Below, piece by piece: positions 5,626 through 49,658 of a DNA stretch of 64,000 bases (its first letter is position 1; the number at the start of each line of letters is the position of its first letter). The notes beneath the pieces are model-generated. The model was not told the DNA's origin. It searched no databases and saw only the letters and a program-made list of their open reading frames with translations. Source of the stretch: Caldisericia bacterium (GTDB lineage Bacteria; Caldisericota; Caldisericia; UBA6126); NCBI GenBank assembly GCA_023146045.1, contig JAGLCW010000094.1, positions 2,579-66,578 on the forward strand. The letters run 5' to 3'. The position numbers and the translations under genes were made by a program.

Positions 5626-7941
5626 TCAATATGTAATTGTAATTGTCTGAGTTTTACCATCCCAATCAATTTTTGCTCCAAATGCTTCTGCAATAAATCT
5701 TAGTGGAACGAATGTTCTCCCACTGCTAATAACTGGGGCTGTATCCAAAATTACTTTCTCTCCATTTACAGTTGCAATAGGCTTGCCGATGCTCATACTA
5801 ATTTCATTTTTACCTTGTGTAATTGTAATTGTCTGAGTTTTACCATCCCAATCAATTTTTGCTCCAAATGCTTCTGCAATAATTCTTATTGGAACAACTG
5901 TTCTCCCTTTTGAAATAAAAGGTGAAGCCTCCATTATCTTTGGTTCACCGTTTATTAAAACTGTTTTATTGCCAATCACGAACCTAATTATTACTGGTTC
6001 CTTTGTGTAGTTAAATGTTACTGGAATTTTTAAATCTCCACCATTTGATGTGATCATTATAAATCCATTGTTTTCACCGGTTTTTGCATTTTGCGGATCA
6101 AACATAAGCTTTACAGTCTTTTTTCTATTCCCAAGTATTGAAAAAGATGTAACAGAAGCTGTAAGCCATGGGCCATCAATCTCAACAGAGCCAGACATTT
6201 TTGCTGCACCAATATTCAGCATGGAAAGCTTCACTTCTATTGGATCACTGTCTGTCGTAACATAAATTGTATCTTCTTTCAATGAGTCACACTCAATGGA
6301 AAGTTCTGCAGGGGCTTCTACAATTTCAAGTTTAACGGGAACATTAAATTCTTCCTTTTCAACTTTAAAGATTAGAGTATCTTTAAAGGTTGCGATCTTT
6401 AATTTTTTGGTATTGATTGATACACTTATCTTTTTTTCTTCGCCTGGCTCAAGAGAGAATTCTTCATTTGTGTCAATTTTAATAAATGTTGGAACTTGCT
6501 CAATAGAAACTTCTGCTTTCGCGTCTCCAGTGTTAGAGATTGTGATGCTTTCTTTAGCTTCTTTAGCTTCTGTGTCAATTACAGTGCCAAAATCTATTTC
6601 TTGTGGAGCGATTACAATTGCTGCTGCAAGAATCACGACACTAATTGTAATTTCTTTGTCACCACCATCGGATTTAATATTGATCGTTCCCGTGTAGGCT
6701 CCAGACGACAATTTGCTAGTGCTAATATGTATTTTACATTTAGTCTTATTCTCACTAAAGCTTCTTGGACTAGTTCTTAGCCATTTTTCAGAAGAAGAAA
6801 TGGAGCCACTAATTGGACCATCATAAATATTGTTAACTGTGAATTCCTTTGATTTTCCTGAACCTCGTTTTACTTCACCAAAATCAACGTTACTTAAATC
6901 GATTTGAATTTTAGGGGTGTGTAAAACTTGAAGTTTAAAAGGAACTGATTTTTTGTATGTGCTACCATTAATAGACAGGATGCCCCTGTATGTTCCAGGG
7001 TCTAATCCTTTTGTGTTTATGCTTAATTTAGCTTTAGTTTCACTCAGAGCAGACAACGAAAAATTTTTGTTAAGTTTAAAAAAAGTTTCGTTACACTCAA
7101 TACTTACTGTTTCTGATTTACTACCACAATTTCTAATATTTAAATTTGTTGTTGCTTTGCCGTTTTGTTTCATTTGACCGAAGTCAATTTCATTTGGGTA
7201 GGAAGCAATAACAGCACCAGAAGCATTTATTTTCTTTTGACCAAAAGCGAAATAAGAAGAATTTTCAATTCCAATTCTGCTTTCTATCCAAGCATATGCC
7301 CTAAGCATTTCTACGGACCAATCGGGGTCTATCTCAACTGTTACTTCTGCAATACCTTTTGTGTCGTTTACTTTAACTGTTCCACCAGTTCGAGAAACAA
7401 AACGATGGCGTTTTTCTCCATTTGATCCTTTGGCGTAAATAAAATCTTCTGCTAGACAGTAGTATATTTCAGCACGATCTGGAAGTTTTGAGTATTCTAT
7501 TTTAAACGTTACAGTGTTATCACTAATGCTGCTTTGTTCAACAGAAATTTCGCATGAAGAACCTCTAGCTTTTGATTTTTTAATTTGAGATTGAAGAGTG
7601 TCGGTGTCTCTTCCTGGACACTTTTTTGTGTCAATGTAAAAGGAAGGGAACCCACCAACTGATAATTTTGCCATTCTGGAATTAGCAAAGCTATTACCCA
7701 TTGGATCTCCGCCATTTGAAGAATGGTGTTTAAGCAATATGAAGTCTTTTTCTCCATAGCGAGAGTATAGTGCATCTATTGTTTCGCTGGCATCAGGACA
7801 ATAGCCACACCATGTAGCAGTGAATTGCTCAACCAAAACCATCTTTTTAACTATAGCCGAAGCTTTTTTTGTTGGGCTCCCAACGAATAGCATCCCAAAA
7901 GCTATTGCAAATATGGTTATTATTGAAAATGTCCTTTTCAT
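5626..7941 (-). CDS. Secreted multidomain protein: signal peptide, thioredoxin-like domain (WCGYC), Ig-like/CARDB-like repeats, and two C-terminal CuAO-N (copper amine oxidase N-terminal-like) domains
   Basis: Signal peptide; 'TATWCGYCPDAS' CxxC motif. The C-terminus has two near-identical 'VPIRIIAEAFGAKIDWDGKTQTITIT' CuAO-N domains. Confidence 0.65.
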   Translation of the reverse strand: MKRTFSIITIFAIAFGMLFVGSPTKKASAIVKKMVLVEQFTATWCGYCPDASETIDALYSRYGEKDFILLKHHSSNGGDPMGNSFANSRMAKLSVGGFPSFYIDTKKCPGRDTDTLQSQIKKSKARGSSCEISVEQSSISDNTVTFKIEYSKLPDRAEIYYCLAEDFIYAKGSNGEKRHRFVSRTGGTVKVNDTKGIAEVTVEIDPDWSVEMLRAYAWIESRIGIENSSYFAFGQKKINASGAVIASYPNEIDFGQMKQNGKATTNLNIRNCGSKSETVSIECNETFFKLNKNFSLSALSETKAKLSINTKGLDPGTYRGILSINGSTYKKSVPFKLQVLHTPKIQIDLSNVDFGEVKRGSGKSKEFTVNNIYDGPISGSISSSEKWLRTSPRSFSENKTKCKIHISTSKLSSGAYTGTINIKSDGGDKEITISVVILAAAIVIAPQEIDFGTVIDTEAKEAKESITISNTGDAKAEVSIEQVPTFIKIDTNEEFSLEPGEEKKISVSINTKKLKIATFKDTLIFKVEKEEFNVPVKLEIVEAPAELSIECDSLKEDTIYVTTDSDPIEVKLSMLNIGAAKMSGSVEIDGPWLTASVTSFSILGNRKKTVKLMFDPQNAKTGENNGFIMITSNGGDLKIPVTFNYTKEPVIIRFVIGNKTVLINGEPKIMEASPFISKGRTVVPIRIIAEAFGAKIDWDGKTQTITITQGKNEISMSIGKPIATVNGEKVILDTAPVISSGRTFVPLRFIAEAFGAKIDWDGKTQTITITY

Positions 7942-8080: not shown

Positions 8081-11000
8081 ATGAAAAGATCCTGGATTCA
8101 ACGTACATTGGTTTATTTATGTGTTTTGGTTCTATTTTTTACTATTTTGCCAGTTAAGCAATCAATAGCAATTCCAAGGCCCTGTAATGGAGCAATTAGT
8201 GGTAGTATTTCGCCTGCATCATGCGGAGCAGGTTTTAGGATTACCGTAAAAAACGAGAATGGAGAAACTTTATGGGAAGGTACTACCGATAGCCAAGGAA
8301 ATTTTACTACACCATTTAGCTTACCAGGAGGTACTGCAATAGTCGAAGCAATGAAAATAGGTTGTAACATTACACCTTCTTCACAAAAAGTAACTGTCGA
8401 ATGCGAAAAAAAAGCAACAGTAAGGTTTACTTGTAAATGTGAAGGACACGAAGAAAAAGGCAGAATACTTGTCTACATGCCAAAAAATTGTTTGCGTGGT
8501 ACTTCTGTACGAATTACTGGAGTAAGTAACAACCAGTCAATGAATTTGACAGAGTATAATCAACAGGGAGCTTTTGATTCTGGTTGTGAGTTATTTTGTA
8601 ATACAGAGTATGTCGTACAACCAATAAATAAAAATTGTACTTTTTCTCCAGAATCTAGAAGAGTAAAAGTTGCGTGTTGTCCAAAAGAAACCAAAGTAAC
8701 TTTTAGTTGTGATTGCAAAAAAGATTCAGGAAGAATTGTTGTATATATGCCTGAAGATTGTAAACCTGGAACTTATGTTGATATTTTTAATGAACAAGGA
8801 ACTATTGTAAAAACATTAAGCGGTGTTTTTGATACAGGGTGTACGTTGCCGTGTCAAAAATCATACAAAGTTGTTCCAAGGCATCCACAAAAGGCATTTA
8901 CTCCAAAATCTGTAGTTGTAAATGTTCCATGTTGTCCAGAATATGCAAGAGCTGAGTTTACTAAATGCACTAGTGGTAGCATGAACAAAGGAAGAATTAA
9001 GATTGAAATTCCTAGAAGTTGTATTTCAGGTACCACTGTGAATGTTTATAATTCTAATGGTTCATTAGTTAAAACTCTTAATTCTGCTTCTAGAGGTGGA
9101 TACTTTGATACAGAATGTACTCTTCCTTGCCCCGGAATGTATAACATAATTCCCAAAAACGCAAACATGGTTTTTTCACCTGCTTCTCAGCGTGTTTCAG
9201 TAAAGTGCTGTCCTGATATATCTCAGATAAGCTTTAGATGTTCTGAAAAACCAAAAGAAAAAGGAAGAATTGTCGTAAAGCTTCCTTATAAGTGCATTAA
9301 AGTTGACAATGTAACAACAGTTATAAATCTCTACAATGAAAAAGGATCCCTAGTTGATATAATAAAACCAGATTCTCAAGGTCAATATGACACTCAGTGT
9401 TCTATAGAAAGCGGCAAAAATTATACACTTGTTCCTCAGAATGATAACTGCACATTTAGTCCATCAAAAAAACAAGTTCTTGTTTTGCCATGTCCTGACA
9501 TCACGACTGCAGCATTTACGTGCGAATGCGGTTCAAAAAAAGGGCGCATTATTGTTAAAATGGACGAAAAGTGTTTAAGTGGAACTAAAATTAACATTTA
9601 TGATGAAAACGGAAGACTGTATACTACATTAACTTCTGTTAACCCTCAAGGAGAATTTGATTCAGGATGTTCAATCCCATGCAATAAAAAATATGAAATT
9701 GTTCCATATAACCCTTCTTTCAATTTTTCCCCAAGTAGGAAAGTTGTTTATTTAAAATGTTGCCCAGATATTTCAACAGTAATATTTTCATGTGGAAGCA
9801 CTCAGAAAAAAGGGAGTTTTGCAATATATGTTCCAGAAAATTGTCAAAAAGGAACTTCAATATATATTTATGACACTCACGGTAATGTTGCAAAAATTAT
9901 TACATCTGTAGACTCTGATGGCTATTTTAGAACAGGATGTACATTATTGTGCAATGAATCTTATAAAATTGTACCAAAAAACAATAGTTGTACATTTGAT
10001 CCACCAGTTAAGCAATTAGTACTTGACTGCTGTCCATCTGAAACAAAAACTTCATTCGAATGTGATTGCGAAGAAAAAGATGGGCGAATAAAAGTACACC
10101 TATCTAGAGAATGTGCTACAGATGCGGTTATACATATATATGATATCAATAATAATTTAGTTATAACTGTGACCTCGAATATTGGAGGGGTTTTTGATAC
10201 TGGATGTGTGCTTCCTTGCGATAAATATTACAAGGTTGTACCAGAGAAAAAAGATTGTACTTTTTCACCAGCATCTAAAACTATAGAAAAATTGTTGTGC
10301 TGTCCAGAGATAAACCAGGTTGCATTTGAGTGTGAGTGTGATAAAAATGGTGGTAGACTGTTAATTAAAATACCAGAAGATTGCATTAACGTAGAAAAAG
10401 AGCAAACTGCAATTTACATATATGACCAAGCAGGTAATATTGCTGATATTATTAATGCCCCAGGTGCTGATGGATATTACGATACTGGAAAAACTTTGAA
10501 ATGTGACGAGTTTTATAAAGTTAAGCCAAAAAACAGTCTGTGTACTTTTTCTCCAGAATCTCAATTGGTCAAAGTAGATTGTTCTAAGGATGGTAAAACA
10601 GTACAATTCCAATGTTCTTGTACGTCTAAAAAAGGTAGGATATATTCTAGAATTGATGGAGGATATGACGGTGTATCTCTGCAAGTATTTGACGAAAGTT
10701 CAAAGCACTTGATCTTAACACTGACAAATCCTGGTTCAAATGGGTTTGATACAGGGTGTATACTTTCAACAAATACAATGTATAAGCTTGTCCCAAGCAA
10801 AGACGGATGTACTTTTTCTCCACCTTCAATTAGTGTACAGCCTAAAGCATGTCCAGATTCAGCATCTGTTACTTTCAAGTTAAAATGTCAACCGGATTGT
10901 TTTGGTGGATTCAAGGGTTATTTTTTAAACCGTTATACCAAAGGGACATCAATTCAAATATTGAAAAATGGAAACGTAACTAAAACAATTCAATCAGATT

Positions 11001-12763
11001 CTTTAACTGGATTCTTTGATTCAGGATTGTCTCTGGAAAAAGGAACATATACATTAAAACCAAGCAAAGAAGGATGTATTTTTTCTCCTGAAACACAAAC
11101 TATAAACATTGTGTGTAATGATTATTCTGTGATTGAATGGGAGGGCAACTATCAAAGCAGCACGAAACCCGTAATAGTATGGCTAGACTCTCCAATCAAT
11201 TATGTAAAAAAAGAGCAATCTTTACCTGCATCTTATAAAATAAAAGTAATGGTTGGAGACAAAGGTGCTGAAGTATCTAATTTTATGGCTGCAAAAATTG
11301 TTTTACACTTCGATGAAAACTATTTTGCTTTTGTTGATGTTAATGAAGGATCCTTTTTGAAAAAAGACAACGGATCAACATTTTTTACTCACAAATTGAT
11401 TGATGGTGGTATGTTAGAAATTGATATTTCAAGGACAAATGGTTCTGTTGGTGGCTTTGGAGAGATAGCTACTGTAACTTTTTCTTTGCAATCAATTTCT
11501 TCCACAGTATTGCTTAGCCAAAGAGCTGGACAACGAACACTTACTTCAATTGGTATTGAAAAAGCTGACATAAGAAATAAAGACGGTGTATCTCAATCTG
11601 TGTTAACGGAAAACTGCATTTTTTATGTTCAAAGCAGTAGTTCAAACGAATCTCATATTTGTGATTTCAATAAAGACGGTTTGGTCAATTTTGATGATAT
11701 GATGATTTTTTCTTTGGCGTATGGTAAACGAATCGGAAATCCTGGCTGGAACAGCCAAACTCAAACTTCTGGATCGCCATTCGAGAGATGTGATGTGTGG
11801 TGCTCCAGAAATCCACCACCAGCTCCAGCTGAATATTCTATTGGAGATGGGGTAATAGATTTTAATGATCTTGTTTTTTTCAGTATGAATTTCAGATATT
11901 TTGCTGAAAATAATACAAGTAGTGTTAATAAAAGACCTATTGTACTAAGTATTGGGAGGGCTTTTGCTGGTGCTAAAATTCAAATTGTGCAACCATTAAA
12001 GAAAGCCTTTATGGTGGGGGATGAAGTTGCATTTAATGTAGCAATAAGTGAAATTGATCAAATTGTTAGAGGGATACAGTTAACTTTTGAGTACCAGAAT
12101 GATCTTCTGGAATTTGTTAGCGTCACAGAAGGAAACTATTTGAAAGATACAAAAGCCAATGGAACAATGTTCATGCCAACAAATAATGGAGCAACTATTG
12201 AGATATCTACAGCTGTTATGGGTGAACCAAAAGAAAGCGTTATTGGTGGATTAATAGCTACAGTAAATTTTAAGTGTCTAAAAGTTGGATCTGTAGTTTT
12301 TAACAAAAAGAAACTTGATGTAAGAAATATTGACAATAAAACAATACTTACGTCTTTTGAAAGTATACCATTTAGTATTACGGGTACTCAAAAAAGAACA
12401 ATAAAATTAGTAATCGGCAGTAAAAGTGCTTTTATCAATGATAAGGAAATGGTTTTAGATGTTCCACCTACAATTGTCTCTGGTAGAACTATGGTGCCAA
12501 TAAGGTTTGTTTCAGAAGGACTTGGAGCAAAAGTAGAATGGGACGGAGAGACAAAAACAATATCAATCGTATTTGGAGACGATGTAATCTCTATGATTAT
12601 TGGAGTTGATGTTGCTATTCACAATGGTAAAGCCGTTAAAATGGACGCCCCTCCATTTATAATGAGTGGTAGAACTATGGTGCCAATAAGGTTTGTTTCA
12701 GAAGGACTTGGAGCAAAAGTAGAATGGGACGGAGAGACAAGAACAGTTACAATTATCAAATAA
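8081..12763 (+). CDS. Giant (1560 aa) secreted surface protein: about 10 Cys-rich prealbumin/CarboxypepD_reg-like repeats, two cohesin-like domains flanking a dockerin-like Ca-binding repeat, and two CuAO-N domains
   Basis: Signal peptide. The ~88-aa repeat 'FxCxC..GRIxVxMPxxCxxGTxVxIxxxxGxxVxTxxSxxxGxFDxGCxLPCxxxYxxVPxxxxCTFSPxSxxVxVxCCP' occurs about 10 times. 'DFNKDGLVNFDD' matches the dockerin DxNxDGxVNxxD loop. The C-terminus has two CuAO-N domains (VPIRFVSEGLGAKVEWDGETKT). Confidence 0.75.
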   Translation: MKRSWIQRTLVYLCVLVLFFTILPVKQSIAIPRPCNGAISGSISPASCGAGFRITVKNENGETLWEGTTDSQGNFTTPFSLPGGTAIVEAMKIGCNITPSSQKVTVECEKKATVRFTCKCEGHEEKGRILVYMPKNCLRGTSVRITGVSNNQSMNLTEYNQQGAFDSGCELFCNTEYVVQPINKNCTFSPESRRVKVACCPKETKVTFSCDCKKDSGRIVVYMPEDCKPGTYVDIFNEQGTIVKTLSGVFDTGCTLPCQKSYKVVPRHPQKAFTPKSVVVNVPCCPEYARAEFTKCTSGSMNKGRIKIEIPRSCISGTTVNVYNSNGSLVKTLNSASRGGYFDTECTLPCPGMYNIIPKNANMVFSPASQRVSVKCCPDISQISFRCSEKPKEKGRIVVKLPYKCIKVDNVTTVINLYNEKGSLVDIIKPDSQGQYDTQCSIESGKNYTLVPQNDNCTFSPSKKQVLVLPCPDITTAAFTCECGSKKGRIIVKMDEKCLSGTKINIYDENGRLYTTLTSVNPQGEFDSGCSIPCNKKYEIVPYNPSFNFSPSRKVVYLKCCPDISTVIFSCGSTQKKGSFAIYVPENCQKGTSIYIYDTHGNVAKIITSVDSDGYFRTGCTLLCNESYKIVPKNNSCTFDPPVKQLVLDCCPSETKTSFECDCEEKDGRIKVHLSRECATDAVIHIYDINNNLVITVTSNIGGVFDTGCVLPCDKYYKVVPEKKDCTFSPASKTIEKLLCCPEINQVAFECECDKNGGRLLIKIPEDCINVEKEQTAIYIYDQAGNIADIINAPGADGYYDTGKTLKCDEFYKVKPKNSLCTFSPESQLVKVDCSKDGKTVQFQCSCTSKKGRIYSRIDGGYDGVSLQVFDESSKHLILTLTNPGSNGFDTGCILSTNTMYKLVPSKDGCTFSPPSISVQPKACPDSASVTFKLKCQPDCFGGFKGYFLNRYTKGTSIQILKNGNVTKTIQSDSLTGFFDSGLSLEKGTYTLKPSKEGCIFSPETQTINIVCNDYSVIEWEGNYQSSTKPVIVWLDSPINYVKKEQSLPASYKIKVMVGDKGAEVSNFMAAKIVLHFDENYFAFVDVNEGSFLKKDNGSTFFTHKLIDGGMLEIDISRTNGSVGGFGEIATVTFSLQSISSTVLLSQRAGQRTLTSIGIEKADIRNKDGVSQSVLTENCIFYVQSSSSNESHICDFNKDGLVNFDDMMIFSLAYGKRIGNPGWNSQTQTSGSPFERCDVWCSRNPPPAPAEYSIGDGVIDFNDLVFFSMNFRYFAENNTSSVNKRPIVLSIGRAFAGAKIQIVQPLKKAFMVGDEVAFNVAISEIDQIVRGIQLTFEYQNDLLEFVSVTEGNYLKDTKANGTMFMPTNNGATIEISTAVMGEPKESVIGGLIATVNFKCLKVGSVVFNKKKLDVRNIDNKTILTSFESIPFSITGTQKRTIKLVIGSKSAFINDKEMVLDVPPTIVSGRTMVPIRFVSEGLGAKVEWDGETKTISIVFGDDVISMIIGVDVAIHNGKAVKMDAPPFIMSGRTMVPIRFVSEGLGAKVEWDGETRTVTIIK

Positions 12764-12828: not shown

Positions 12829-13860
12829 TTACTTTACAAATTTTACAATAGCTGGTTCTATATCTTCTGTGATGCTATTTATGGCATCTTTATAATGGAT
12901 CTTGAGCTTTCCATCAATTAGCATTAAATATGGTGCTTCACCAAGATACAAAACGTTTGATATTGATCTGTTTGAGTCACATATTACTGGTTCAGTTCTT
13001 GCATAATCTGTAATGAACCTTTCAGAGTCTATTTCATTTGCGTCAGTAATAAATATTACTTTAATGCCATAAGGAGTCAATAAATCTCTTACTGTTCCGC
13101 ATTTTGATTTACAAGTACCACACCCAACGTCTACATAAATTAATGCAGTATTTTCACCTTTTAGATCAGAAAGCGTCCACTTTTTCCCAGATACATCTGT
13201 TCCTTGGAATGTCTTTAAAAAATCACCCTGTCCTGCCAAAGATAGACCGTTTGGGAAAAGTCTTTTAAATTCTTCATTACCTTTAGCATAAAGAAAAACC
13301 ATTTTAAATGTCTTTAAAAAGCTTTCTTTAAAAGTTTCAGCGAACTTATTTAGATCTTCTTCATCTGGTTTGAAAATTCCGTTATTGCCTGCAAGAGCGT
13401 CAATTGTTAGCCCATTGAAATGGTGGAAGTAGCTCCCGAGATATGTTTTTGCTCCACCAATAGAAAAAGAGTCCATCATTCCTATTGAATAAACAGACAT
13501 TTGAGCATCAAAGATTACTGCTCCATCTGGGAAATTAGGTATTGGAAACTGAGCAGTGAAACCTAATTCACGTTGTAGCTTATTGTCCCAAATTTCTCCA
13601 ACCTTTATCTTGAAATTTTTATCGTCTGAGTCTCTAAGAACTGCAGGATTAGAAATTGAAAAGGTTGACTTCATTGCTGCTGTTTCAACAGTCTCTATTA
13701 AACTTTTTTTGCTAATCATATTTGTAAAGAAAAAAACATTGAATAAGAGTGATGCAGCTAAAATTATCACCAATCCTTTTTTTAAATTTGAATTCGTCGA
13801 TTTAACTTCTGGTATAGAATTCTTGTTTTTTGGACTGTGATTATATCGTTTTCTAGCCAT
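12829..13860 (-). CDS. Membrane-anchored thioredoxin-fold protein (TlpA/ResA-like thiol-disulfide oxidoreductase)
   Basis: N-terminal basic region and TM helix. The C-terminal domain has 'LSDLKGENTALIYVDVGCGTCKSKC', a redoxin-like CxxC arrangement. Confidence 0.55.
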   Translation of the reverse strand: MARKRYNHSPKNKNSIPEVKSTNSNLKKGLVIILAASLLFNVFFFTNMISKKSLIETVETAAMKSTFSISNPAVLRDSDDKNFKIKVGEIWDNKLQRELGFTAQFPIPNFPDGAVIFDAQMSVYSIGMMDSFSIGGAKTYLGSYFHHFNGLTIDALAGNNGIFKPDEEDLNKFAETFKESFLKTFKMVFLYAKGNEEFKRLFPNGLSLAGQGDFLKTFQGTDVSGKKWTLSDLKGENTALIYVDVGCGTCKSKCGTVRDLLTPYGIKVIFITDANEIDSERFITDYARTEPVICDSNRSISNVLYLGEAPYLMLIDGKLKIHYKDAINSITEDIEPAIVKFVK

Positions 13861-15081: not shown

Positions 15082-16326
15082 CTAAACCTTCCTTTTCTGA
15101 TCAGAAAACTGATATTTAAAATATGTTATTTGATTTGGTAGATTCACTTCGATAAATACTAAACCATTATCTGTAAGTGAAAATTCCGTTTTACGCGTAC
15201 TTAAAGAATGTTTTCTCCAAATTAAGTGTTTTCTCCAGTTAAGTTCAACAATTTCCTTCTGCAAGTAAAATGGTCGCAAATCTGTTTTCGGAGTATATGT
15301 GATAAAAAAATTTGAATAGAAAATTTCCGCATTATCAATCTTATACCCAAATCTTTCTTTAGATAGGATACAGTCACCAGATAAATCATACAAAAGTAAT
15401 GTTGATGAGGTTGTAACTAGAAGTACATCTTTTTTTTGAGAAAAAGAAACTTTTGTAATAGGCTCTTTAACGTCTGTTTGCCAAAGAATTACTCCATCGA
15501 TGTTTGCAAGAAACAAATGATATAGTTCTTCATTGTTAACTCTTTGTTTAAAACTTATGCAAATATTTCCATCGTTGCTTATGTCTTGTAAGAATGGATA
15601 TTTCTTGGACGATGTGTTTCCATCAACTGAAATTTGTTTATTCCAGTGAACAAAAGCATAGTAGCTAATACACTCAATAACTCCTTTTCCCGTGCTCCAT
15701 ATAAGTAGTTTACCATCCGGAGAAGGCGTTAGTTTGTACCTAGAGTAAGTATCTGGGAGCTTTTTTGGTGTCTCAATCGTGGCTCCCTCTGAATTTGTTA
15801 AAAAATAGTAATTTTCTAGATTGTGGAGAGATGAAGCAAGAAAGCCTATTTTTCCATCTTTGAATACCCAAAAATCTTGGATAAAAAAATTCTCTGGTTT
15901 ATAAAACTTTTCCCAAACTGTGCGTTGTTCCGTTATGTCAATACAAAAAACAGAATAGCATTTTACAAGAATAGATGATTCATCAAAAGTAAATTCTATA
16001 TCAAGAATTGGATCTTCAAATTGATGATCGAATAGCAACTCTCCAGCTTCGTTGAATATTGAAATTAAACCAGTTTCGCTTCCAACTGCAATAAAGGAGC
16101 CTTTTTCAGAAATCGCATGAGATGTGATGTTCTCGGTGGTTTCAATTGTCCAATTGCTTTTTAGTGATCCAGATGCGAAAGTGTTTTTAGATTCAATCCA
16201 AAAAAGCGATGAAACAATCAGCAAGATTAAAAAAAAGACTAACGTAATGGTAAAATAACTTAATTGTGTAGTTTTATTTAATATCTTCATCGACATAATT
16301 ATATGGGAAAGAAAATTTTTTCTCAA
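15082..16326 (-). CDS. Membrane-anchored beta-propeller (WD40/PQQ-like) hypothetical protein
   Basis: N-terminal TM helix followed by repeated beta-strand-rich blades. No catalytic motif. Confidence 0.45.
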   Translation of the reverse strand: MRKNFLSHIIMSMKILNKTTQLSYFTITLVFFLILLIVSSLFWIESKNTFASGSLKSNWTIETTENITSHAISEKGSFIAVGSETGLISIFNEAGELLFDHQFEDPILDIEFTFDESSILVKCYSVFCIDITEQRTVWEKFYKPENFFIQDFWVFKDGKIGFLASSLHNLENYYFLTNSEGATIETPKKLPDTYSRYKLTPSPDGKLLIWSTGKGVIECISYYAFVHWNKQISVDGNTSSKKYPFLQDISNDGNICISFKQRVNNEELYHLFLANIDGVILWQTDVKEPITKVSFSQKKDVLLVTTSSTLLLYDLSGDCILSKERFGYKIDNAEIFYSNFFITYTPKTDLRPFYLQKEIVELNWRKHLIWRKHSLSTRKTEFSLTDNGLVFIEVNLPNQITYFKYQFSDQKRKV

Positions 16327-16386
16327 TTACATTTCTTACAGTTTTTAAATAAACACTGTATAAAGAAAAAGTATGAAGGATTTATC

Positions 16387-18549
16387 ATGGTTGGAACTGG
16401 TTTTTTATATATATCAGCGTTTTTGTCGTTAATCTCTGCTGTTTTCTTGTTAAATAATAAGAAGTTCAAAAAACTTGCGCATATTGGTATTTATTTTTCA
16501 GTTGGACTAATATTCTTTTCTTTCCTTTACTATGTGTATTTGTTTTTGGCGCATTCTTTTGAATTTGTAAATGTTTTTAATAATTCGTGTTTGAGTATGT
16601 CTACACTACAATTGATTGCTTGCTCATGGTCTGGGCAATCCGGGTCACTTTTTTTATGGATAATATTTACAGGATTTACTGTGCTGATAGCACGGAAAAA
16701 CATGGTTGATAAAGTATGGAAAAGCGTAATATTATTGGGGATGCAATTAATCTTACTGCTGTTGCTAATTCAATCTAAACCGTTCGCGGTACAGCAAATT
16801 CTAGTATCTGACGGTATGGGGTTAAATCCTGTTTTAAGTAATCCACTAATGGTATTGCACCCGCCTTTTGCTTTCTTAGCATATTCTTTTATCGGTTTAT
16901 TCTTTTCTGCTGGATTGGCTTCTTTAATCGAAGAATCAAACAATGAATGGATAAAAGAAAATTCCTATAGTTTATATTTTGCTTTTTTTGGATTAACTGT
17001 TGCAATTATTCTTGGGTCATTTTGGGCATACGAGATTATAGGTTGGGGAGGCTATTGGGCGTTTGACCCTGTAGAGAGTGGTTCTCTTTCTCTTTGGCTT
17101 TGTGTTGTTGCATTGTTGCACATGCTAGATAGAAAAGGAAATCCAAAGAAAAGTTCATCTTTATTCTACATAATCCCAATTTTTTCAGTGTTTTCAATGT
17201 ACTATGTTAGTTTTTTAATCCGATCAGGATTACTCCAGAGTTTCACTGCACATTCATATGCCAAAGGCGGCTTAGTAAGTGCTCTGTATGGGATTTGCTT
17301 GATCTTTTTTATTATTCCTATTTCAGTTTTTTTGATTAAAAAAAGGAAAAACAAAGAGAGGAAAAAGCTTGATCATAGTAAGTGCACGAAAGTAAAGGAA
17401 AAATATTTTGTTGCAAAGTCATTATTTTGTTTAGGGATAATACTATTTTTACAAGTGAATTTACCAATAATCCAGATTTCAAGTGAGTTAATTCTAAGAA
17501 CAAATGAAGTAATAATTGATGTATTTTTGATTAGCTTCATGCTTCTATTGAATATTTCGCAAATTAATATGATTTTAGAAAAAAAATATTCTAAAAAAAC
17601 AATGTGGGTTTCAATATTCATGTCTTTTGTTCTTACAATATGCATTGTATTGGTTTACGCAAAACTTAAGAATAGTAGATTATTTTGGGTGTATTTAGTT
17701 ACAATATTTTCTGCATTTTACTGGATTTTTTCTAATGCTTTTGTTCGGGTGAAAAGCTGGCAAAAAGTTAGCATTAAAATAATTCATGTTGCCATAGGTT
17801 TAATTATTCCTGGAATTGTTTTAACTTCAGCTTTGTCTCAATCATGGCAGCTGTATGTAGGTACGCAAAAACCAAAAGTTTTAGATGAGTACCAATTGAT
17901 ACAGTTAGACAACCAAAAAAAAATAGACATGTACATTGGGAATAAAACAACTTTTTTTTTGGAATGCAAAGGGAATAACCTTAATGTGATTGAATTTAAT
18001 CCTGAAATATGGAATTATTCGAGAAATTACACAAATTTCTCTATGACAATTCCCTCAATAAACACTAGCTGGAAAAAAGATCTGCAATTGATTCCTTTTA
18101 CAGAAAACGGTATACAAATAAAAAATAGTAAGACCACTACATGGGATAGTGTAGAATATTATCTAGAGTCCTTAGAATTTGAGGAAAAACTAGACATTAT
18201 AAAGCAAAAAGCCAGACTCAAAATTCGTAGTAACAATACTGACGATGAAGAGTTTTATTTATTAAGAATGACTAACAAAAGTGGAAGACAACTTAATCCT
18301 GTGAGGGTATATTCAGAAATAACAAAAGGGCATATTATGTGGATTGACACAGATGAAGATTCAATAATTATTACAACAGATAAAAGAATGACACAAAGGA
18401 AATATGAGTTGATCGAAAAACCTGGTATGGTATGGATAAAATTTGGATTTGTTGTTCTTATTATTGGAAGTTTTTTACTAATGTATTTCTTTTTAGTGAA
18501 TAGATTTCAAAAAAAGAGAAAAAAAAGTAAAATTAATAATTATGAATAA
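16387..18549 (+). CDS. Cytochrome c-type biogenesis heme-lyase-like protein (CcmF/NrfE/CcsA family, WWD domain)
   Basis: WWD motif 'WAYEIIGWGGYWAFDPVESGSLSLWL'. Polytopic membrane protein with a soluble domain near the C-terminus and a final TM helix. Start chosen at the ATG at 16387 (preceded by GAAGGA), because the 16303 start overlaps the divergent gene. Confidence 0.55.
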   Translation: MVGTGFLYISAFLSLISAVFLLNNKKFKKLAHIGIYFSVGLIFFSFLYYVYLFLAHSFEFVNVFNNSCLSMSTLQLIACSWSGQSGSLFLWIIFTGFTVLIARKNMVDKVWKSVILLGMQLILLLLLIQSKPFAVQQILVSDGMGLNPVLSNPLMVLHPPFAFLAYSFIGLFFSAGLASLIEESNNEWIKENSYSLYFAFFGLTVAIILGSFWAYEIIGWGGYWAFDPVESGSLSLWLCVVALLHMLDRKGNPKKSSSLFYIIPIFSVFSMYYVSFLIRSGLLQSFTAHSYAKGGLVSALYGICLIFFIIPISVFLIKKRKNKERKKLDHSKCTKVKEKYFVAKSLFCLGIILFLQVNLPIIQISSELILRTNEVIIDVFLISFMLLLNISQINMILEKKYSKKTMWVSIFMSFVLTICIVLVYAKLKNSRLFWVYLVTIFSAFYWIFSNAFVRVKSWQKVSIKIIHVAIGLIIPGIVLTSALSQSWQLYVGTQKPKVLDEYQLIQLDNQKKIDMYIGNKTTFFLECKGNNLNVIEFNPEIWNYSRNYTNFSMTIPSINTSWKKDLQLIPFTENGIQIKNSKTTTWDSVEYYLESLEFEEKLDIIKQKARLKIRSNNTDDEEFYLLRMTNKSGRQLNPVRVYSEITKGHIMWIDTDEDSIIITTDKRMTQRKYELIEKPGMVWIKFGFVVLIIGSFLLMYFFLVNRFQKKRKKSKINNYE

Positions 18550-37621: not shown

Positions 37622-40189
37622 ATGAAAAGAATAATTAGTATTTTAATCTCTTTTTGTCTTGTATTCGGAGTTTTTATCGGTGAAAATGCTTTTGGTGAAA
37701 ATGGAGCCAAGAAAGTTGATTCACTTGGGAATAATCCATGGGTAACAATTGCTCACGATAGCATGATGTCTGGTATGTCTTTATCAGAGCTGGGAGAAGA
37801 TTTTGAAGAAGCCGAAGATTGGCCGTTTGATTCAGACGCAGGCTCTGGAGCGATGTTGGGGCGAGGATCCATTATCTATGATGGGATATTGTTTGTCCAG
37901 CTTAATTCAGATTTAAGAGGTTCATCTTCAGAAGTTATCGCTGTAGAGGTAGACTCTGGTGAAGAAATATGGAGAACTGAAATTGACGGTAGGCTTGCAT
38001 TTACTGCACCAGTTATTGATGAAGAATTAGGATTAATCATAGCTGCTGCGACTAATGGTTATGCTGAAAAAGGAAGTGGAGAAACTTTGATTTCTGCTTT
38101 AACTTTAGAAGACGGAGAAGTAGAATGGACATCAACCTCAACTGGTGCTATTTCTTGTCCACTAACCATAAGTGATGGAGCAGTGTATTTTAAGGCTATT
38201 TTTGGAAAACCAATCGAAGACAATGAAGACTATGATTCAACCGGAGATGATTCAATTGTTGTAAAAATTGATGCCGAATCTGGCGATGTTGAATGGGAAG
38301 CAGATATAGAAGGTGCTTGGTATTTAGAATGGGATGCACCTTGTGCTGTAGTTGGTGACTATGTTTATGCGGCTACATGTAATTACGGAATGAATAGTAA
38401 AACTGGTAGTATCAGATTTTTAGGTCCTGCAAGGCTTTATTGTCTAGATACAGAATCTGGCGATATCGAATGGGATATGGTTGATACGTTAGGTTTAGCA
38501 GGAAGCGGTATTTGTGCAGATGATGAATTTGTTTATTTTGCAAGAAGTAGGATAGACATGGACAGCAATCAAGCTGAAATGGTTGTATCTGCTCATGAAC
38601 TAGAGTCTGGCAGCGAAGAATGGGAATTCAGCGCAAATGGAGTGATGACTTGGTGGTGTTCTCCTGTATGTAATGATGATTCGGTCTTTGTACAAGAACG
38701 TGGCGGTAAAGTCTGGGCGATTAGCAAAGACGATGGAGACAAAGAATGGTCAAAAGGCGTTGGAGACATGATCTATAATACAGCAATTGCGCTTGCTGGT
38801 GATTATGTAATAGCAGCTGGCTGGGAAACTAGTGGTACCAAAAGAACTGGTTCAGAAATGATGATTCTTGATGCTTCAAGAAGAGGTAAAAAAGTCTGGA
38901 CTGAAAAATGTGATGAAGAAATTAACCACGTAGCAGTATATGGCAACAGAATATTTTTTACCGGTAAAGTAGAAATTTATTGCTATGAGGCTATGGTGCC
39001 AAAACTAGTAGTTGATCCTGAAAAAATTGAACTTGAAGAAGTTGAAAGAAATACAAAAACTGAAATTAATCTTTCCCTCGAAAATAAGGGAGTTGAAGGT
39101 TTAGAAGGCACAGTTGAAGTAGATCAAGATTGGCTAACAATTGATATAGAAAAAGTCGACGATGAAACTACCGAAGCAACTGTGACAATTAACACATGGG
39201 ATCTTGATCCAGATGACTATTCTGGAAGAATTGTATTTGATACAAACGGTGGCAAAGTTATAGTCCCAGTATTAATTACTGTTGTAGACGAAGAACCACC
39301 AGTTATTGAATGGGATTTTGAAGATTTTAAGCTTATTGATGAAAAACTTTACACAAATCAAAAAGAAGCTGTTTTAAAAGGTAAAACAGAACCTACAGCT
39401 TATATAATTATTAACGGAGAAGATGCGGAAGTTGATTCCGATGGTTTGTTTGAGCTTGAAATTGAACTTAAAGAAGGTAAAAACGAAATTGAAGTTAAAA
39501 CTGAAGATGACCTCGGGAACAAGGGCGAAGAAGCACTTGAACTCTATCTAGACACTAAACCACCAGAATTAACTGTTTCAACTAAAGATTACACTCTTTC
39601 TACAGAAGAAAACTTCTACATCATTGGACAATGCAAAGAAGATAATGTTATTGTAACAATAGATGAAGAAGAGATTGAACTGGGAAAAGCTGGAAAATTT
39701 GCAGTTGAGGTTACCCTGGAAAAAGGCGAGAATGTATTTGTTTTAAAGGCAACTGATCAATTTGGGAATGAAACTGTTATAGATTTACACATTGTTTATC
39801 CGAAAAAGAAAATTGTAATTCTACAAATTGGTAACAAGGAAGCTGAAGTTAATGGTCAAATAACCATTCTTGAGGCACCACCAACCATAATTAATGGTAG
39901 AACAATGGTACCACTACGTTTTATTGCTGAAACATTCGGAGCAGAATTAGGCTGGGATGGCAAAGATCAAAAGATTACATTGAATTACTATGGGCAAGTT
40001 ATTGAATTGTGGATTGGCAGAAAAACTGCAATGGTAGATGATGATCCAATGATTCTTGAGGCACCACCAACCATAATTAATGGTAGAACAATGGTACCAC
40101 TACGTTTTATTGCTGAAACATTCGGAGCAGAATTAGGCTGGGACGGAGATACGCAGACAATTACATTAATATATCCAAAAACTTCATAA
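37622..40189 (+). CDS. Secreted PQQ-like beta-propeller protein with Ig-like domains and two C-terminal CuAO-N domains
   Basis: Signal peptide and repeated propeller blades (…YVYAAT…, …VYFAR…). Acidic Ig-like middle region. Two 'APPTIINGRTMVPLRFIAETFGAELGWDG' CuAO-N domains. Confidence 0.7.
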   Translation: MKRIISILISFCLVFGVFIGENAFGENGAKKVDSLGNNPWVTIAHDSMMSGMSLSELGEDFEEAEDWPFDSDAGSGAMLGRGSIIYDGILFVQLNSDLRGSSSEVIAVEVDSGEEIWRTEIDGRLAFTAPVIDEELGLIIAAATNGYAEKGSGETLISALTLEDGEVEWTSTSTGAISCPLTISDGAVYFKAIFGKPIEDNEDYDSTGDDSIVVKIDAESGDVEWEADIEGAWYLEWDAPCAVVGDYVYAATCNYGMNSKTGSIRFLGPARLYCLDTESGDIEWDMVDTLGLAGSGICADDEFVYFARSRIDMDSNQAEMVVSAHELESGSEEWEFSANGVMTWWCSPVCNDDSVFVQERGGKVWAISKDDGDKEWSKGVGDMIYNTAIALAGDYVIAAGWETSGTKRTGSEMMILDASRRGKKVWTEKCDEEINHVAVYGNRIFFTGKVEIYCYEAMVPKLVVDPEKIELEEVERNTKTEINLSLENKGVEGLEGTVEVDQDWLTIDIEKVDDETTEATVTINTWDLDPDDYSGRIVFDTNGGKVIVPVLITVVDEEPPVIEWDFEDFKLIDEKLYTNQKEAVLKGKTEPTAYIIINGEDAEVDSDGLFELEIELKEGKNEIEVKTEDDLGNKGEEALELYLDTKPPELTVSTKDYTLSTEENFYIIGQCKEDNVIVTIDEEEIELGKAGKFAVEVTLEKGENVFVLKATDQFGNETVIDLHIVYPKKKIVILQIGNKEAEVNGQITILEAPPTIINGRTMVPLRFIAETFGAELGWDGKDQKITLNYYGQVIELWIGRKTAMVDDDPMILEAPPTIINGRTMVPLRFIAETFGAELGWDGDTQTITLIYPKTS

Positions 40190-49500: not shown

Positions 49501-49658
49501 GAAATCTAGAACGAGAATACAATCCTATTTTAGAAATAAACGATACCGCATATCTGGCAGCTGATTTTCTAAGTTTAAAAATGAATTTTAAAATCACTCT
49601 AGAATATAATGCCGAGAAGCAATTCCTTATTAGTTTGTTAAAAAGTAAAGAAGATTAA
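46521..49658 (+). CDS. Receptor-type Ser/Thr protein kinase with tandem kinase and pseudokinase domains, a TM helix and an extracellular domain ending in a CuAO-N-like module
   Basis: Domain 1 has 'IGRGGMSIVYKG', 'AIK', 'HQDIKSSN', 'DFG' and 'APE'. Domain 2 (about res 370-620) keeps HRD and APE but lacks the Gly loop, VAIK Lys and catalytic Asn, and has LGF for DFG. K-rich linker, TM 'LLIIALLVAAFCTIFAIYYF', and C-terminal 'ESVYIPIRFLVDSLGGKIEYDTETECITI'. RBS GGAGGG before the ATG. Confidence 0.8.
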   Translation: MDQIQFGKYIAYEEIGRGGMSIVYKGKHPTLNKPVAIKVLSEFLSVDKGFIKRFQDEAQMLSSFRHANIVSILDYGKQGSSYFIVMDFIEGFTVKQMILETGALSLNIATNIVKNVATAVAYTHRKSIVHQDIKSSNIMVDSNGRILVTDFGLSKNISLENVEENPYEVAGTLAYSAPEQLDRKQGKVDGRTDIYSLGVVFYEMVTGKLPFADENTTVNIAYQHLNVVPESPKKIRPDLLLKSSSIIMKMLKKKQDDRYQTMDDLLKEINELEDVLQYYKPQDEEEEGSFFSFQNDDEENDDESHGYKQSDSKEEVSNYEESNAAMVFSTEKSDTIGKKQITDMKTVDSNVDSFPPVDISDPFIGREIKHRYRIQKLILRRILSRLYYGVDLVKESPVTIQLPNESRPTFKTRIDKEIQTMKKINHPGFVKFIDVIEDNGVNFVIREYVDGYTIKNLLKREKLSIKRSVMIAMDVLDALSYLHNKGIVHRDLNSDVVIVPKEGRTRISSLGFTRVEDASSVSSGEFLGVVQYTAPEQIIQSHSDVRTDIYAVGILMFEMLTGVPPFDSPLPVEVMDMHLKRVPRFPEDAQKGIPLKLQRIVLRALSKQPEQRFPTAPEMAGSLKSFLESFTGKEVKIDAITGDMNENEKQTGIEKDTENRVNVLSDTGIYRNIQTSRNTKKQQFSIKKPLSRSEKKEKDNKVNIRKIINNDLQTETKKRDIGISKENEVYEATQKKKKTEKKNQISSPKFEVKAPKNKKVVRSNGKNKSNKKKSNPLLIIALLVAAFCTIFAIYYFKKPATGVNEETHANNTNRIEWVSPNSSAETTLIPMIPLEIELKQLDYSEGNYFDLVDLPKEIEYSVSLPDSKGTFEIMMYTSNQIRSSTVAFSLICMDPEDKILSETKYVIAYNYKAIKQIVLNYSNATYSVNKHEEKTIEPNAALNDESVYIPIRFLVDSLGGKIEYDTETECITITDIDSHEYKFYLTTQQYSVDGNLEREYNPILEINDTAYLAADFLSLKMNFKITLEYNAEKQFLISLLKSKED

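Follow-up and report, generated by a model that had tools for sequence, protein, structure and literature searches.

Stalk proteins and cohesin-dockerin systems

The stalk domains of Gram-positive surface proteins are usually stiffened by isopeptide bonds or by calcium. Anchoring scaffoldins of the SdbA/OlpB type combine cohesins with an SLH anchor. Cohesins and dockerins are also found outside cellulose degradation, sometimes within one protein, as exemplified by Archaeoglobus fulgidus (2xdh) and by surface proteins of ANME archaea, and a role in surface assembly has been proposed for them (surveyed by Peer et al. 2009, as cited in PMC9012536 and PMC10066038). The literature that we searched contains no prior description of cohesin/dockerin proteins for Caldisericota. 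To our knowledge, no cellulosome producer belongs to this phylum.

Here we describe a gene from an uncultured Caldisericia bacterium, located in a stretch of 64,000 nucleotides (64 kb, hereafter the window) to which all nucleotide coordinates refer. Its product is probably a secreted surface protein in which a cysteine-rich stalk is followed by two cohesins, a dockerin-like module and a presumed envelope anchor. These parts are variants of known building blocks and not a new kind of system.

The gene and its product

The open reading frame (8081..12763, + strand) starts with ATG, encodes 1560 amino acids and agrees exactly in position and length with an earlier note made from the sequence. An identical protein is on record as hypothetical protein KAH01_02695 of a Caldisericia MAG. 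The features of the product are as follows.

8081..8170, + strand, aa 1-30: Sec-type signal peptide, read from the translation (MKRSWIQR, a hydrophobic core and a probable cleavage site between SIA and IP)
8186..8452, + strand, aa 36-124: D1, divergent N-terminal prealbumin-like domain, with 5 of 8 Cys positions kept
8453..10894, + strand, aa 125-938: D2-D10, nine canonical CnaB/prealbumin-like domains rich in Cys, each keeping 4, 6 or 8 of the eight conserved positions, absences always falling in inferred pairs
10895..11158, + strand, aa 939-1026: D11, degenerate final stalk domain, with 2 of 8 Cys positions
11165..11635, + strand, aa ~1029-1185: Cohesin 1 (Pfam Cohesin, PF00963)
11651..11899, + strand, aa 1191-1273: dockerin-like module (F-hand 1, a linker of ~40 aa, F-hand 2)
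11936..12388, + strand, aa ~1286-1436: Cohesin 2 (PF00963)
12401..12760, + strand, aa 1441-1560: Cu_amine_oxidN1 module (PF07833), made of two internal repeats of ~60 aa

Tandem-repeat genes of great length are prone to mis-assembly in MAGs, and an apparent frameshift divides one orthologue (P0003, locus L001). The earlier note had named a pseudogene or a chimera of repeats among the findings that would overturn its reading. The present gene is intact and is not an assembly artefact. Its frame runs for 4.68 kb without interruption, the repeats share no more than 60-80% identity at the DNA level except for one 29-nt pair (93%), and orthologues of 46-48% identity, found on at least four other metagenome/GTDB contigs, keep the collinear 11-domain architecture, the domain-by-domain Cys pattern and the cohesin-module-cohesin order. 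Because the repeat DNA is so divergent and the domain order is the same in these orthologues, collapse of repeats into a chimera can to all intents be dismissed.

The stalk domains

A repeat HMM matches 11 units of 85-94 aa, each at E values between 1e-23 and 1e-38. The tandem Cys-rich repeats of the earlier note are thus real, while its count of about ten falls short by one. Canonical copies are 30-45% identical among themselves, and the two terminal copies 19-30%. The structural domains are phased as GRIxV...CCPxxxxVxFxCxC, with boundaries at aa 36/125/215/302/393/486/576/666/756/850/939/1027. The AF2 model of aa 466-668 has a pLDDT of 95.1, contrary to the disorder that would have spoken against the earlier reading, and displays the seven-strand prealbumin-like fold of a CnaB-type stalk domain. 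Among its top Foldseek matches are SdrD B domains and Cna B repeats, along with SpyCEP, NOMO, pilins and the B. anthracis TIE protein (TMq 0.63). Sequence identity to solved stalk domains of this type is 8-17%.

No Pfam family matches the canonical copy D6 at E<=10, in keeping with the earlier statement that the repeat lies outside any named family. The resemblance to carboxypeptidase-regulatory or transthyretin-like domains, also proposed there, holds for the fold class. At the level of sequence, CarboxypepD_reg (PF13620) scores 32.0 bits on the whole protein against a gathering score of 32.3, and this likeness is confined to D1 (aa 50-117). An isopeptide triad of Lys, Asn (Asp) and Glu (Asp) was sought in 165 domain copies, among which no Lys or Glu column is conserved at >=60%. 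The conserved columns in this set are Cys, Gly, Pro and aromatics, together with D42 and N59 in loops. A GTDB scan places the 8-Cys stalk family almost solely in Caldisericota and Sumerlaeota; since the scan relied on a 7-row alignment and a single peptide pattern, this spread is a lower bound.

Pairing of the cysteines

The protein contains 73 Cys (4.7%), 67 of them within aa 35-1026. The canonical domain carries eight conserved Cys columns, and not the six or seven first noted; all eight are present in 110 of 164 domains from 21 proteins, and the Cys count is even in 151 of the 164 (92%). In this same set, the four pairs with the strongest co-loss (phi 0.90, 0.88, 0.82 and 0.63) split the eight Cys exactly, with no overlap. 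For the NxxC cysteine, co-variation is seen with the CxC that lies C-terminal to it (0.86) and not with the preceding one (0.03), which agrees with the domain phase of the AF2 model. Because the Cys disappear in four exclusive pairs, we infer that up to four disulfides staple each canonical domain of the stalk, bearing in mind that the co-loss was derived from related, non-independent sequences. The pairs would be MPxxC with FxC, DTGC with the second C of CC, LxC with the first C of CC, and NxxC with the second C of CxC. Placed on D7, they would correspond to C588-C661, C620-C651, C624-C650 and C637-C663. About 30 disulfides are predicted in this way for the whole protein.

The conserved Cys might instead be metal ligands or serve redox chemistry, as metal-thiolate sites or as a surface that handles extracellular electrons or sulfur. 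The organism is an anaerobe of a sulfur-reducing lineage, the protein is rich in Cys with CxC and CC motifs, and thioredoxin-fold CxxC proteins are encoded on the flanks of the gene. We nevertheless consider this alternative very improbable. Strict loss in four exclusive pairs and an even count in most domains are the signature of disulfides rather than of 3- or 4-Cys metal sites, and the pairs bridge separate strands of a beta-sandwich that is modelled with confidence. Furthermore, no CxxC or CxxCH motif was found in the protein and His makes up only 0.6% of it. A multihaem or metal-binding protein was rejected on the absence of these motifs.

In a strict anaerobe, stable extracellular disulfides require an oxidising pathway, a need that weighs against the proposed stapling. 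The gene has a neighbour that encodes a surface-anchored thioredoxin-fold protein with a PDI-like active site, WCGYC. An AhpC/TSA-like thioredoxin-fold gene also lies near the stalk gene, and a cytochrome c assembly gene is nearby, which offers an alternative role for the AhpC/TSA-like protein. Synteny with the two flanking thioredoxin-fold genes is kept in the orthologues, as is the entire housekeeping neighbourhood. Thioredoxin-fold neighbours are absent from two loci that carry paralogues or more remote relatives in the stalk family. The proposal of a dedicated disulfide operon is weakened by this general synteny and by these two loci; it remains a lead.

Cohesins and the dockerin-like module

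Both cohesins are genuine, as the earlier note had it. Scanned alone, they score 24.8 bits (Cohesin 1) and 41.2 bits (Cohesin 2) against a Pfam cut-off of 24.1. AF2 modelling of aa 1021-1440, from an alignment of three sequences, yields a pLDDT of about 70-92 in both, and Foldseek finds cohesins as the top PDB matches, the TM-scores normalised to the target being 0.7-0.8. The A. fulgidus cohesin 2xdh is among the best of them (TM-score 0.76, normalised to the target).

The segment between the cohesins begins with a canonical 12-residue calcium loop, DFNKDGLVNFDD (aa 1195-1206), followed by a helix. A conserved linker of ~40 aa with the motifs GW, GSPF and CDVW (GW/GSPF/CDI in the family) leads to F-hand 2, GDGVIDFNDLVFFSMNF, which starts at aa 1255 (GDGVIDFND) and has an expanded, degenerate loop. 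In this second loop, YSIGDGVIDFND, positions 1 and 3 are the non-acidic Y and I, so that the full set of ligands of a canonical calcium loop (positions 1, 3, 5, 9 and 12) is present in loop 1 only. An invariant Asp, D1238 of the 'CDV' motif, is found 18 residues upstream of loop 2 and could supply one of its ligands. From one loop start to the next there are about 56-60 residues, compared with about 33 in the solved dockerin 2y3n_B.

Pfam Dockerin_1 (PF00404) gives 13.0 bits (E 0.12), below its cut-off of 22.9. With the module as query, phmmer finds the dockerin of B. cellulosolvens Cel48 (2y3n_B) at 1.1e-6. An exhaustive profile search found about 150 relatives. A profile of the family retrieves solved dockerins from the PDB before anything else: 2y3n_B at 4e-11, 4wi0_B at 9.5e-7, 4u3s_B at 1.4e-6 and 2b59_B at 2.3e-4. 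XDoc and type II dockerins rank above troponin C, and EF-hand proteins appear at 0.045 or weaker. The two halves of the module are homologous, as judged by hhalign of family segment 1 against segment 2 (probability 98.3%, E 2.5e-14). In the three-sequence AF2 model, helices follow both loops at low confidence (pLDDT 25-38 over aa ~1185-1308). By sequence comparison, then, the segment is a member of an unannotated, conserved family of duplicated F-hand modules related to dockerins. The perfect first loop and degenerate second loop that had been noted earlier are both there, and it is the assignment to Dockerin_1 proper that does not stand.

The module is the best conserved part of the C-terminal region: orthologues are 60-64% identical in it and 28-33% identical across most of each cohesin. 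In other proteins it is C-terminal. It directly follows a cohesin in P0033 (Caldisericota), P0038, P0049 and P0103, and it ends the papain-like peptidases P0079 and P0137. The earlier note had proposed to look for other proteins with dockerins or cohesins as partners. Within the 64-kb window there is none: no other cohesin or dockerin loop and no dockerin-bearing glycoside hydrolase was found.

The C-terminal tail

The Cu_amine_oxidN1 module is unequivocal (155.1 bits against a cut-off of 24.2). Where two such domains had been counted before, there is one module, since its two ~60-aa repeats together make up about one 108-position Pfam model; a stretch of 87 nt is shared between the two halves at 95% identity. 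Three other large ORFs of the window, at least one of which has a signal peptide, end in the same module, and a Ser/Thr kinase in the window carries it close to its C-terminus. No LPXTG-type motif was found near the C-terminus, which ends in ...GETRTVTIIK within the module, and a sortase-anchored LPXTG adhesin was rejected on this ground. In the literature, Cu_amine_oxidN1 is a predicted wall-binding module, and the tail is presumed, from context, to bind the envelope.

Proposed function and alternatives

We lean, by a small measure, towards a secreted surface protein held non-covalently on the envelope, with a disulfide-stapled stalk and a cohesin/dockerin-like base for assembly or for the recruitment of partners. 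As suggested by the architecture, the Cu_amine_oxidN1 tail would keep the C-terminus on the envelope. Because the tail would hold this end, the cohesin/dockerin-like block would be basal and the stalk, tens of nm long, would point outward. The basal block may then engage in calcium-dependent protein-protein contacts. If these are formed between copies of the protein, lateral or chain assembly would result. If the partners are instead other proteins with a terminal dockerin-like module, the present one would resemble an anchoring scaffoldin, though one unconnected with the breakdown of cellulose. The cell-wall anchoring and the scaffoldin-like or self-assembling role suggested in the earlier note are putative in the same way. 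Disulfides would replace the isopeptide bonds that stiffen Gram-positive CnaB stalks. Several observations speak against this scheme. The module scores below the Pfam threshold, departs from the canonical ligands in its second loop and is modelled at a pLDDT below 40, and the window has no partner with a cohesin or dockerin loop. Conservation of the module also far exceeds that of the cohesins on either side, which would not be predicted if they simply co-evolved as binding partners in cis.

The protein could also be a plain fibrillar adhesin whose stalk, or D1 itself, binds a substrate or cell, the cohesins and the dockerin-like module acting without a partner, just as structural spacers or as a hinge stabilised by calcium. 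The nearest folds are indeed stalk domains of adhesins and pilins, D1 is divergent and would sit at the distal tip, and the window is devoid of a cohesin/dockerin partner. An adhesin role has also been proposed for non-cellulosomal dockerins in giant ORFs (PMC10066038). We regard this as unlikely, though not negligible, since D1 begins straight after the signal peptide, leaving no separate ligand-binding head, the dockerin-like module is the most conserved segment of the C-terminal region, and its recurrence at the C-terminus of unrelated proteins, enzymes included, is what one would see with an interaction tag. Somewhat more doubtful still is an intramolecular clasp, in which the module folds onto a flanking cohesin in cis and locks the base of the stalk. 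An obligate cis pair would fit the cohesin-then-module order repeated in several proteins, some of which have a single cohesin (e.g. P0036 and P0049). It would not fit the occurrence of the module without a detectable cohesin in Peptidase_C1/Lectin_like proteins (P0079, P0100, P0137) and in P0046, nor the much faster divergence of the cohesins. The AF2 model has no confident docking either, at the low pLDDT and shallow alignment given above for the module region.

Returning to the envelope-attached protein with an interacting base, a bolder version of it can be put forward as speculation that we think rather improbable. Caldisericota, and perhaps Sumerlaeota, would use CnaB-like stalks stapled by disulfides to build a self-polymerising, non-cellulosomal fibre or lattice on the surface. 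The expanded-loop dockerin subfamily would pair with the adjoining cohesin of a neighbour molecule, Cu_amine_oxidN1 would be the anchor, and the WCGYC protein would act as the dedicated extracellular oxidase or isomerase.

In these anaerobic and barely studied phyla, disulfides would not be expected to form commonly outside the cell. A known stalk fold apparently stiffened by four disulfides per domain, some 30 in one protein, offers a concrete case for disulfide chemistry outside anaerobic cells. Two families absent from current domain libraries emerge: the 8-Cys stalk domain and the dockerin-like module with an expanded second loop, often fused behind a cohesin. If the proposed binding is true, the cohesin-dockerin toolkit reaches Caldisericota with a new type of anchor, Cu_amine_oxidN1, and an orthogonal pair could serve protein engineering.

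Comparison with known systems

The stalk resembles the CnaB-type or B-repeat stalks of S. aureus Cna and SdrD (B domains), the SpaA-type pilins and B. anthracis TIE. Unlike them, it has neither LPXTG nor isopeptide triad, and its rigidity would come from the disulfides predicted for each domain. The arrangement differs as well: a Gram-positive MSCRAMM has its stalk between the anchor and the ligand-binding head, whereas the present stalk would be distal to the interaction modules. With CarboxypepD_reg and transthyretin-like domains the fold class is shared, D1 being the copy that comes near the Pfam threshold. True CarboxypepD_reg domains are present in the distant homologues P0028-P0031 and P0033, and the 8-Cys pattern is specific to the stalk subfamily.

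Like the cellulosomal anchoring or adaptor scaffoldins (C. thermocellum SdbA/OlpB-type), the protein unites cohesins and a dockerin-type module in a secreted polypeptide beside a non-covalent envelope anchor, here presumed. The anchor, however, is Cu_amine_oxidN1 with no SLH, and the dockerin-like module, itself atypical, occupies an internal position with a cohesin on either side. The Pfam hits of the protein include no CBM, which sets it apart from a cellulosomal scaffoldin.

The module shares with type I/II dockerins (PF00404) the duplicated F-hand, a first loop that fits D-x-N-x-D-G-x-(I/V)-N-x-x-D, and solved dockerins as best PDB matches. It differs from them in its sub-threshold Pfam score, the wider spacing of the loops and the non-acidic positions 1 and 3 of loop 2. 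Compared with the non-cellulosomal dockerins, it forms a separate subfamily, marked by the expanded second loop and the conserved GW/GSPF/CDI linker.

Architecture and integrity of the gene

The surface protein is encoded by a plus-strand reading frame (8081..12763, ATG start) whose translation gives 1560 aa, as the earlier note had it, in a window with a G+C of ~34% throughout. The identical protein on record is hypothetical protein KAH01_02695, from a 143-kb contig of a Caldisericia MAG. A Sec signal peptide can be read at the N-terminus, where MKRSWIQR and a hydrophobic core precede SIA|IP. A repeat HMM detects 11 consecutive units (E 1e-23 to 1e-38 each), D1 to D11, between aa ~30 and 1019, where about 10 tandem repeats had been counted. 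Identity is 30-45% among the nine canonical copies (D2-D10) and drops to 19-30% when either terminal copy is compared with the others.

The gene might be an artefact, either a collapsed or chimeric assembly or a pseudogene. However, the repeat DNA is just 60-80% identical, with the exception of one 29-nt pair (93%), and three orthologues (P0002, P0003 and P0004, 46-48% identical to the protein) retain the number and order of the domains. For these reasons the gene is neither. One orthologue, P0003, stops at 1390 aa in its locus (L001, 10001..14666) and is followed by a separate 129-aa Cu_amine_oxidN1 ORF; a frameshift in the metagenome assembly probably accounts for this.

The Cys-rich stalk domain

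An AF2 model of two repeats (aa 466-668), based on 41 aligned rows of repeat pairs taken from the window and from its homologues, has a mean pLDDT of 95.1 with seven strands per unit. Its top Foldseek matches in the PDB are SdrD B domains, SpyCEP, the NOMO/BOS subunit and Gram-positive pilins, together with the B. anthracis TIE protein (TMq 0.63) and Cna B repeats. We read the repeat as a CnaB/prealbumin-like domain stapled by disulfides that are predicted from sequence statistics. According to the strand count, the domain spans GRIxV to VxFxCxC; the CxC that had been placed at the unit start is the last strand of the preceding domain. The suggested resemblance to a carboxypeptidase-regulatory/transthyretin-like fold holds for the prealbumin-like fold (model and Foldseek) but does not reach the Pfam threshold, CarboxypepD_reg scoring 32.0 vs 32.3 bits, and on the divergent D1 only. 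A canonical copy scanned alone has no Pfam match at E<=10, in agreement with the claim that the repeat fits no named family, and we found no description of such a Cys-rich stalk domain in the literature. The stalk-domain alignment has no conserved Lys or Glu column able to form a CnaB isopeptide.

Conserved Cys had been recognized, but they number eight rather than 6-7. Among 164 distinct copies from 21 proteins, which are related to one another, eight columns are each 81-95% Cys; all eight Cys occur in 110 copies, and their number is even in 151. By co-loss, LxC pairs with the first C of CC (phi 0.90) and DTGC with the second one (0.82), while NxxC goes with the second C of CxC (0.88) and MPxxC with FxC (0.63). 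These four strongest correlations split the eight positions exactly, without overlap. The CxC with which NxxC covaries is the one C-terminal to it (0.86 vs 0.03 for the preceding CxC), and the domain phase is therefore confirmed independently. The statistics argue strongly for up to four disulfides per stalk domain and roughly 30 in the protein.

Cys complement of the stalk domains
D2, D7, D8: all eight Cys present
D3, D4, D6: lacking the pair of NxxC and the second C of CxC
D5: lacking the pair of LxC and the first C of CC
D9: lacking the pair of DTGC and the second C of CC
D10: lacking two pairs
D1, D11: Cys pattern degenerate

A word-index search detects 20 relatives with 4-11 domain copies, and every one with a source name is from Caldisericia. 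A GTDB scan (one genome per species, a single peptide pattern), in which the taxonomic spread is a lower bound, adds up to at least about a dozen Caldisericota/Caldisericia MAGs, three from Sumerlaeota (loci L017, L018 and L022), one labelled Calditrichota and one unclassified. Because of the three Sumerlaeota MAGs, the domain family is common to Caldisericota and Sumerlaeota. The Calditrichota-labelled locus (L008, DAIMET010000002.1) encodes cohesin, dockerin-like module and cohesin, with tblastn identities and match spacing equal to those of the Caldisericia-labelled P0002 contig (L002), and its label looks like a taxonomic discrepancy. The sequence-divergent homologues P0016, P0019 and P0020 have seven 8-Cys domains with Laminin_G_3 in between. 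In a Caldisericia paralogue family (P0005, P0006, P0017 and P0021) the stalk domains are C-terminal and the proteins end in a short hydrophobic tail; the N-terminal part carries Cu_amine_oxidN1 and a second, distinct Cys-rich repeat of ~100 aa (C.C....W..C...PNCC / PCCE), which seems unannotated.

The cohesins and the dockerin-like module

Both cohesin-like beta-sandwich domains of the earlier note are recovered. Scanned alone, cohesin 1 (aa 1021-1190) and cohesin 2 (aa 1291-1440) score 24.8 and 41.2 bits vs a Pfam Cohesin threshold of 24.1. An AF2 model of aa 1021-1440 reaches a pLDDT of about 70-92 over both, and its best PDB matches are cohesins, including non-cellulosomal A. fulgidus 2xdh and C. 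perfringens cohesins. Most of the cohesin length is just 28-33% identical between orthologues. The best-conserved stretch of the C-terminal region is the dockerin-like segment between the cohesins (60-64%), modelled at pLDDT <40.

This segment contains DFNKDGLVNFDD at aa 1195-1206 and a second loop motif, GDGVIDFNDLVFFSMNF, starting at aa 1255. Pfam Dockerin_1 scores 13.0 bits, below its cut-off of 22.9, but phmmer against PDB sequences finds the B. cellulosolvens Cel48 dockerin (2y3n_B, 1.1e-6). An exhaustive profile search of the module in 1.84 billion representatives returns 150 proteins at E<=1e-3. The matches covering the entire module, taken as its family, have the consensus GDFNxDGxIDFEDLMIFSLA..K.GD.GW....GSPF..CDIGP......PDGKVDFEDLMVF..W, with residues D5, D16, W33, D48, D66 and D73 invariant. 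Against the PDB, the family profile ranks solved dockerins on top, with 2y3n_B (4e-11) leading A. cellulolyticus XDoc and C. thermocellum type II dockerins, and only after these come EF-hand proteins (0.045 or weaker). An hhalign comparison of the module's two halves gives a probability of 98.3%, which marks them as homologues. Since solved dockerins are matched first and the halves are homologous, the module is, judging by sequence, a dockerin-related duplicated F-hand. The dockerin predicted between the cohesins thus stands by homology but not by Pfam. Its second Ca loop, described as degenerate, indeed has no ligands at positions 1 and 3. The sole invariant upstream Asp sits 18 residues before DG, suggesting that this loop is expanded.

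Two Cys, at aa 1194 and 1237 (window ~11660 and ~11789), are invariant in the three orthologues. The former immediately precedes loop 1 (ICDFN), the latter is in the linker (CDVW), and a clasp formed by the two could span the module. Elsewhere in the family, Gly stands ahead of loop 1, and the linker position frequently holds Ala or some other residue.

In other proteins the module is C-terminal. P0033 (Caldisericota) has GEVED and CarboxypepD_reg repeats, a cohesin and, directly after it, the module as protein end. The module also directly follows a cohesin in P0038, P0049 and P0103, ends the papain-like peptidase / lectin-like proteins P0079, P0100 and P0137, and comes after a true Dockerin_1 domain in P0035. 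Such a distribution is typical of interaction tags.

The Cu_amine_oxidN1 tail and the neighbourhood

Cu_amine_oxidN1 occupies the last 120 aa (155 bits, Pfam) as two internal repeats of ~60 aa each. Because the equivalent region of the neighbouring protein matches positions 2-108 of the 108-position model, the tail is about one Pfam domain, not the two CuAO-N domains first described. Its halves share an 87-nt stretch (12481..12567 vs 12667..12753) with 95% identity, far above any stalk-repeat pair, which suggests a recent duplication or gene conversion.

Other genes of the window
5626..7941, minus strand: thioredoxin-fold secreted protein, 771 aa; divergent from the surface protein gene, 139 bp away
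12829..13860, minus strand: AhpC/TSA/redoxin protein, 343 aa; convergent with the surface protein gene; N-terminal membrane helix, C-terminal AhpC/TSA/redoxin domain with CGTC motif
16303..18549: cytochrome c assembly gene, near the preceding one
37622..40189, plus strand: PQQ_2 and Glucodextran_B beta-propeller protein; C-terminal two-repeat Cu_amine_oxidN1
46521..49658, plus strand: Ser/Thr protein kinase, 1045 aa (Pkinase 1.4e-84); Cu_amine_oxidN1 at aa 935-1028, near the C-terminus
61791..63890, minus strand: NHL beta-propeller protein; C-terminal two-repeat Cu_amine_oxidN1

Three large ORFs (5626..7941, 37622..40189 and 61791..63890) thus end in the same module, which appears to be the standard C-terminal surface tag of the source organism. 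PknB-type kinases usually carry PASTA domains at the position where the kinase has Cu_amine_oxidN1, a hint that the latter recognises a cell-wall component in this lineage. In the literature it is a module of cell-wall hydrolases that is predicted to bind the wall. This prediction and its recurrence in the window support, but do not prove, a role in anchoring to the envelope.

The surrounding genes have housekeeping roles (obg, nucleotidyltransferase, aminotransferase, cytochrome c assembly and ispDF) and are syntenic in orthologous contigs; the 64-kb window holds no further cohesin, dockerin loop or Cys-rich repeat. The 771-aa neighbour begins with a thioredoxin fold (WCGYC active site; best PDB match P. 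gingivalis HBP35, 1.8e-5, then thioredoxins and PDIs; also an NCBIfam Omp28 match), followed by Ig-like (choice-of-anchor D) domains and the Cu_amine_oxidN1 tail. This neighbour is a candidate for a surface oxidoreductase that serves the 73-Cys protein. Orthologues keep the two genes together, but since synteny extends to the whole neighbourhood the tie is unproven. With a cytochrome c assembly gene nearby, the 343-aa protein may act as a ResA/CcmG-like reductase and not as a partner of the surface protein.

Proposed mechanism and comparison with known systems

In the most likely scenario, the C-terminal Cu_amine_oxidN1 module keeps the exported protein on the envelope. The cohesin/dockerin-like/cohesin block would lie at the base, and the eleven disulfide-stapled domains would project from it as a stiff stalk. 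At a few nm per domain, roughly estimated from the fold, the stalk would measure tens of nm. The domain architecture is established, the disulfide pairing is strongly indicated, and the cohesins would bind the module. The basal block would probably make calcium-dependent contacts, either with copies of the protein or with proteins that carry this module at their end, for example the P0033 type of another Caldisericota genome.

An alternative model assumes a plain adhesin in which the modules are passive; another assumes that the block forms a clasp in cis. The cysteines might also bind metal, but a whole-protein scan finds neither CxxC nor CxxCH, and His is scarce. In the preferred reading the protein acts as an anchoring scaffoldin would, and nothing points to cellulose degradation. 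Overall, the observation in the earlier note is confirmed with small corrections, and its interpretation is partly supported.

In fold, the protein is close to the stalks of MSCRAMMs and pilins, but LPXTG and the residues for an isopeptide are absent. Its logic recalls that of anchoring scaffoldins, but SLH, a CBM and enzyme clients are missing. The best fit is with non-cellulosomal cohesin/dockerin proteins, which PMC9012536, citing Peer et al. 2009, places in archaea and various bacteria. Compared with these, the phylum and the type of anchor are new; an atypical dockerin subfamily and a stalk family rich in disulfides are further additions.
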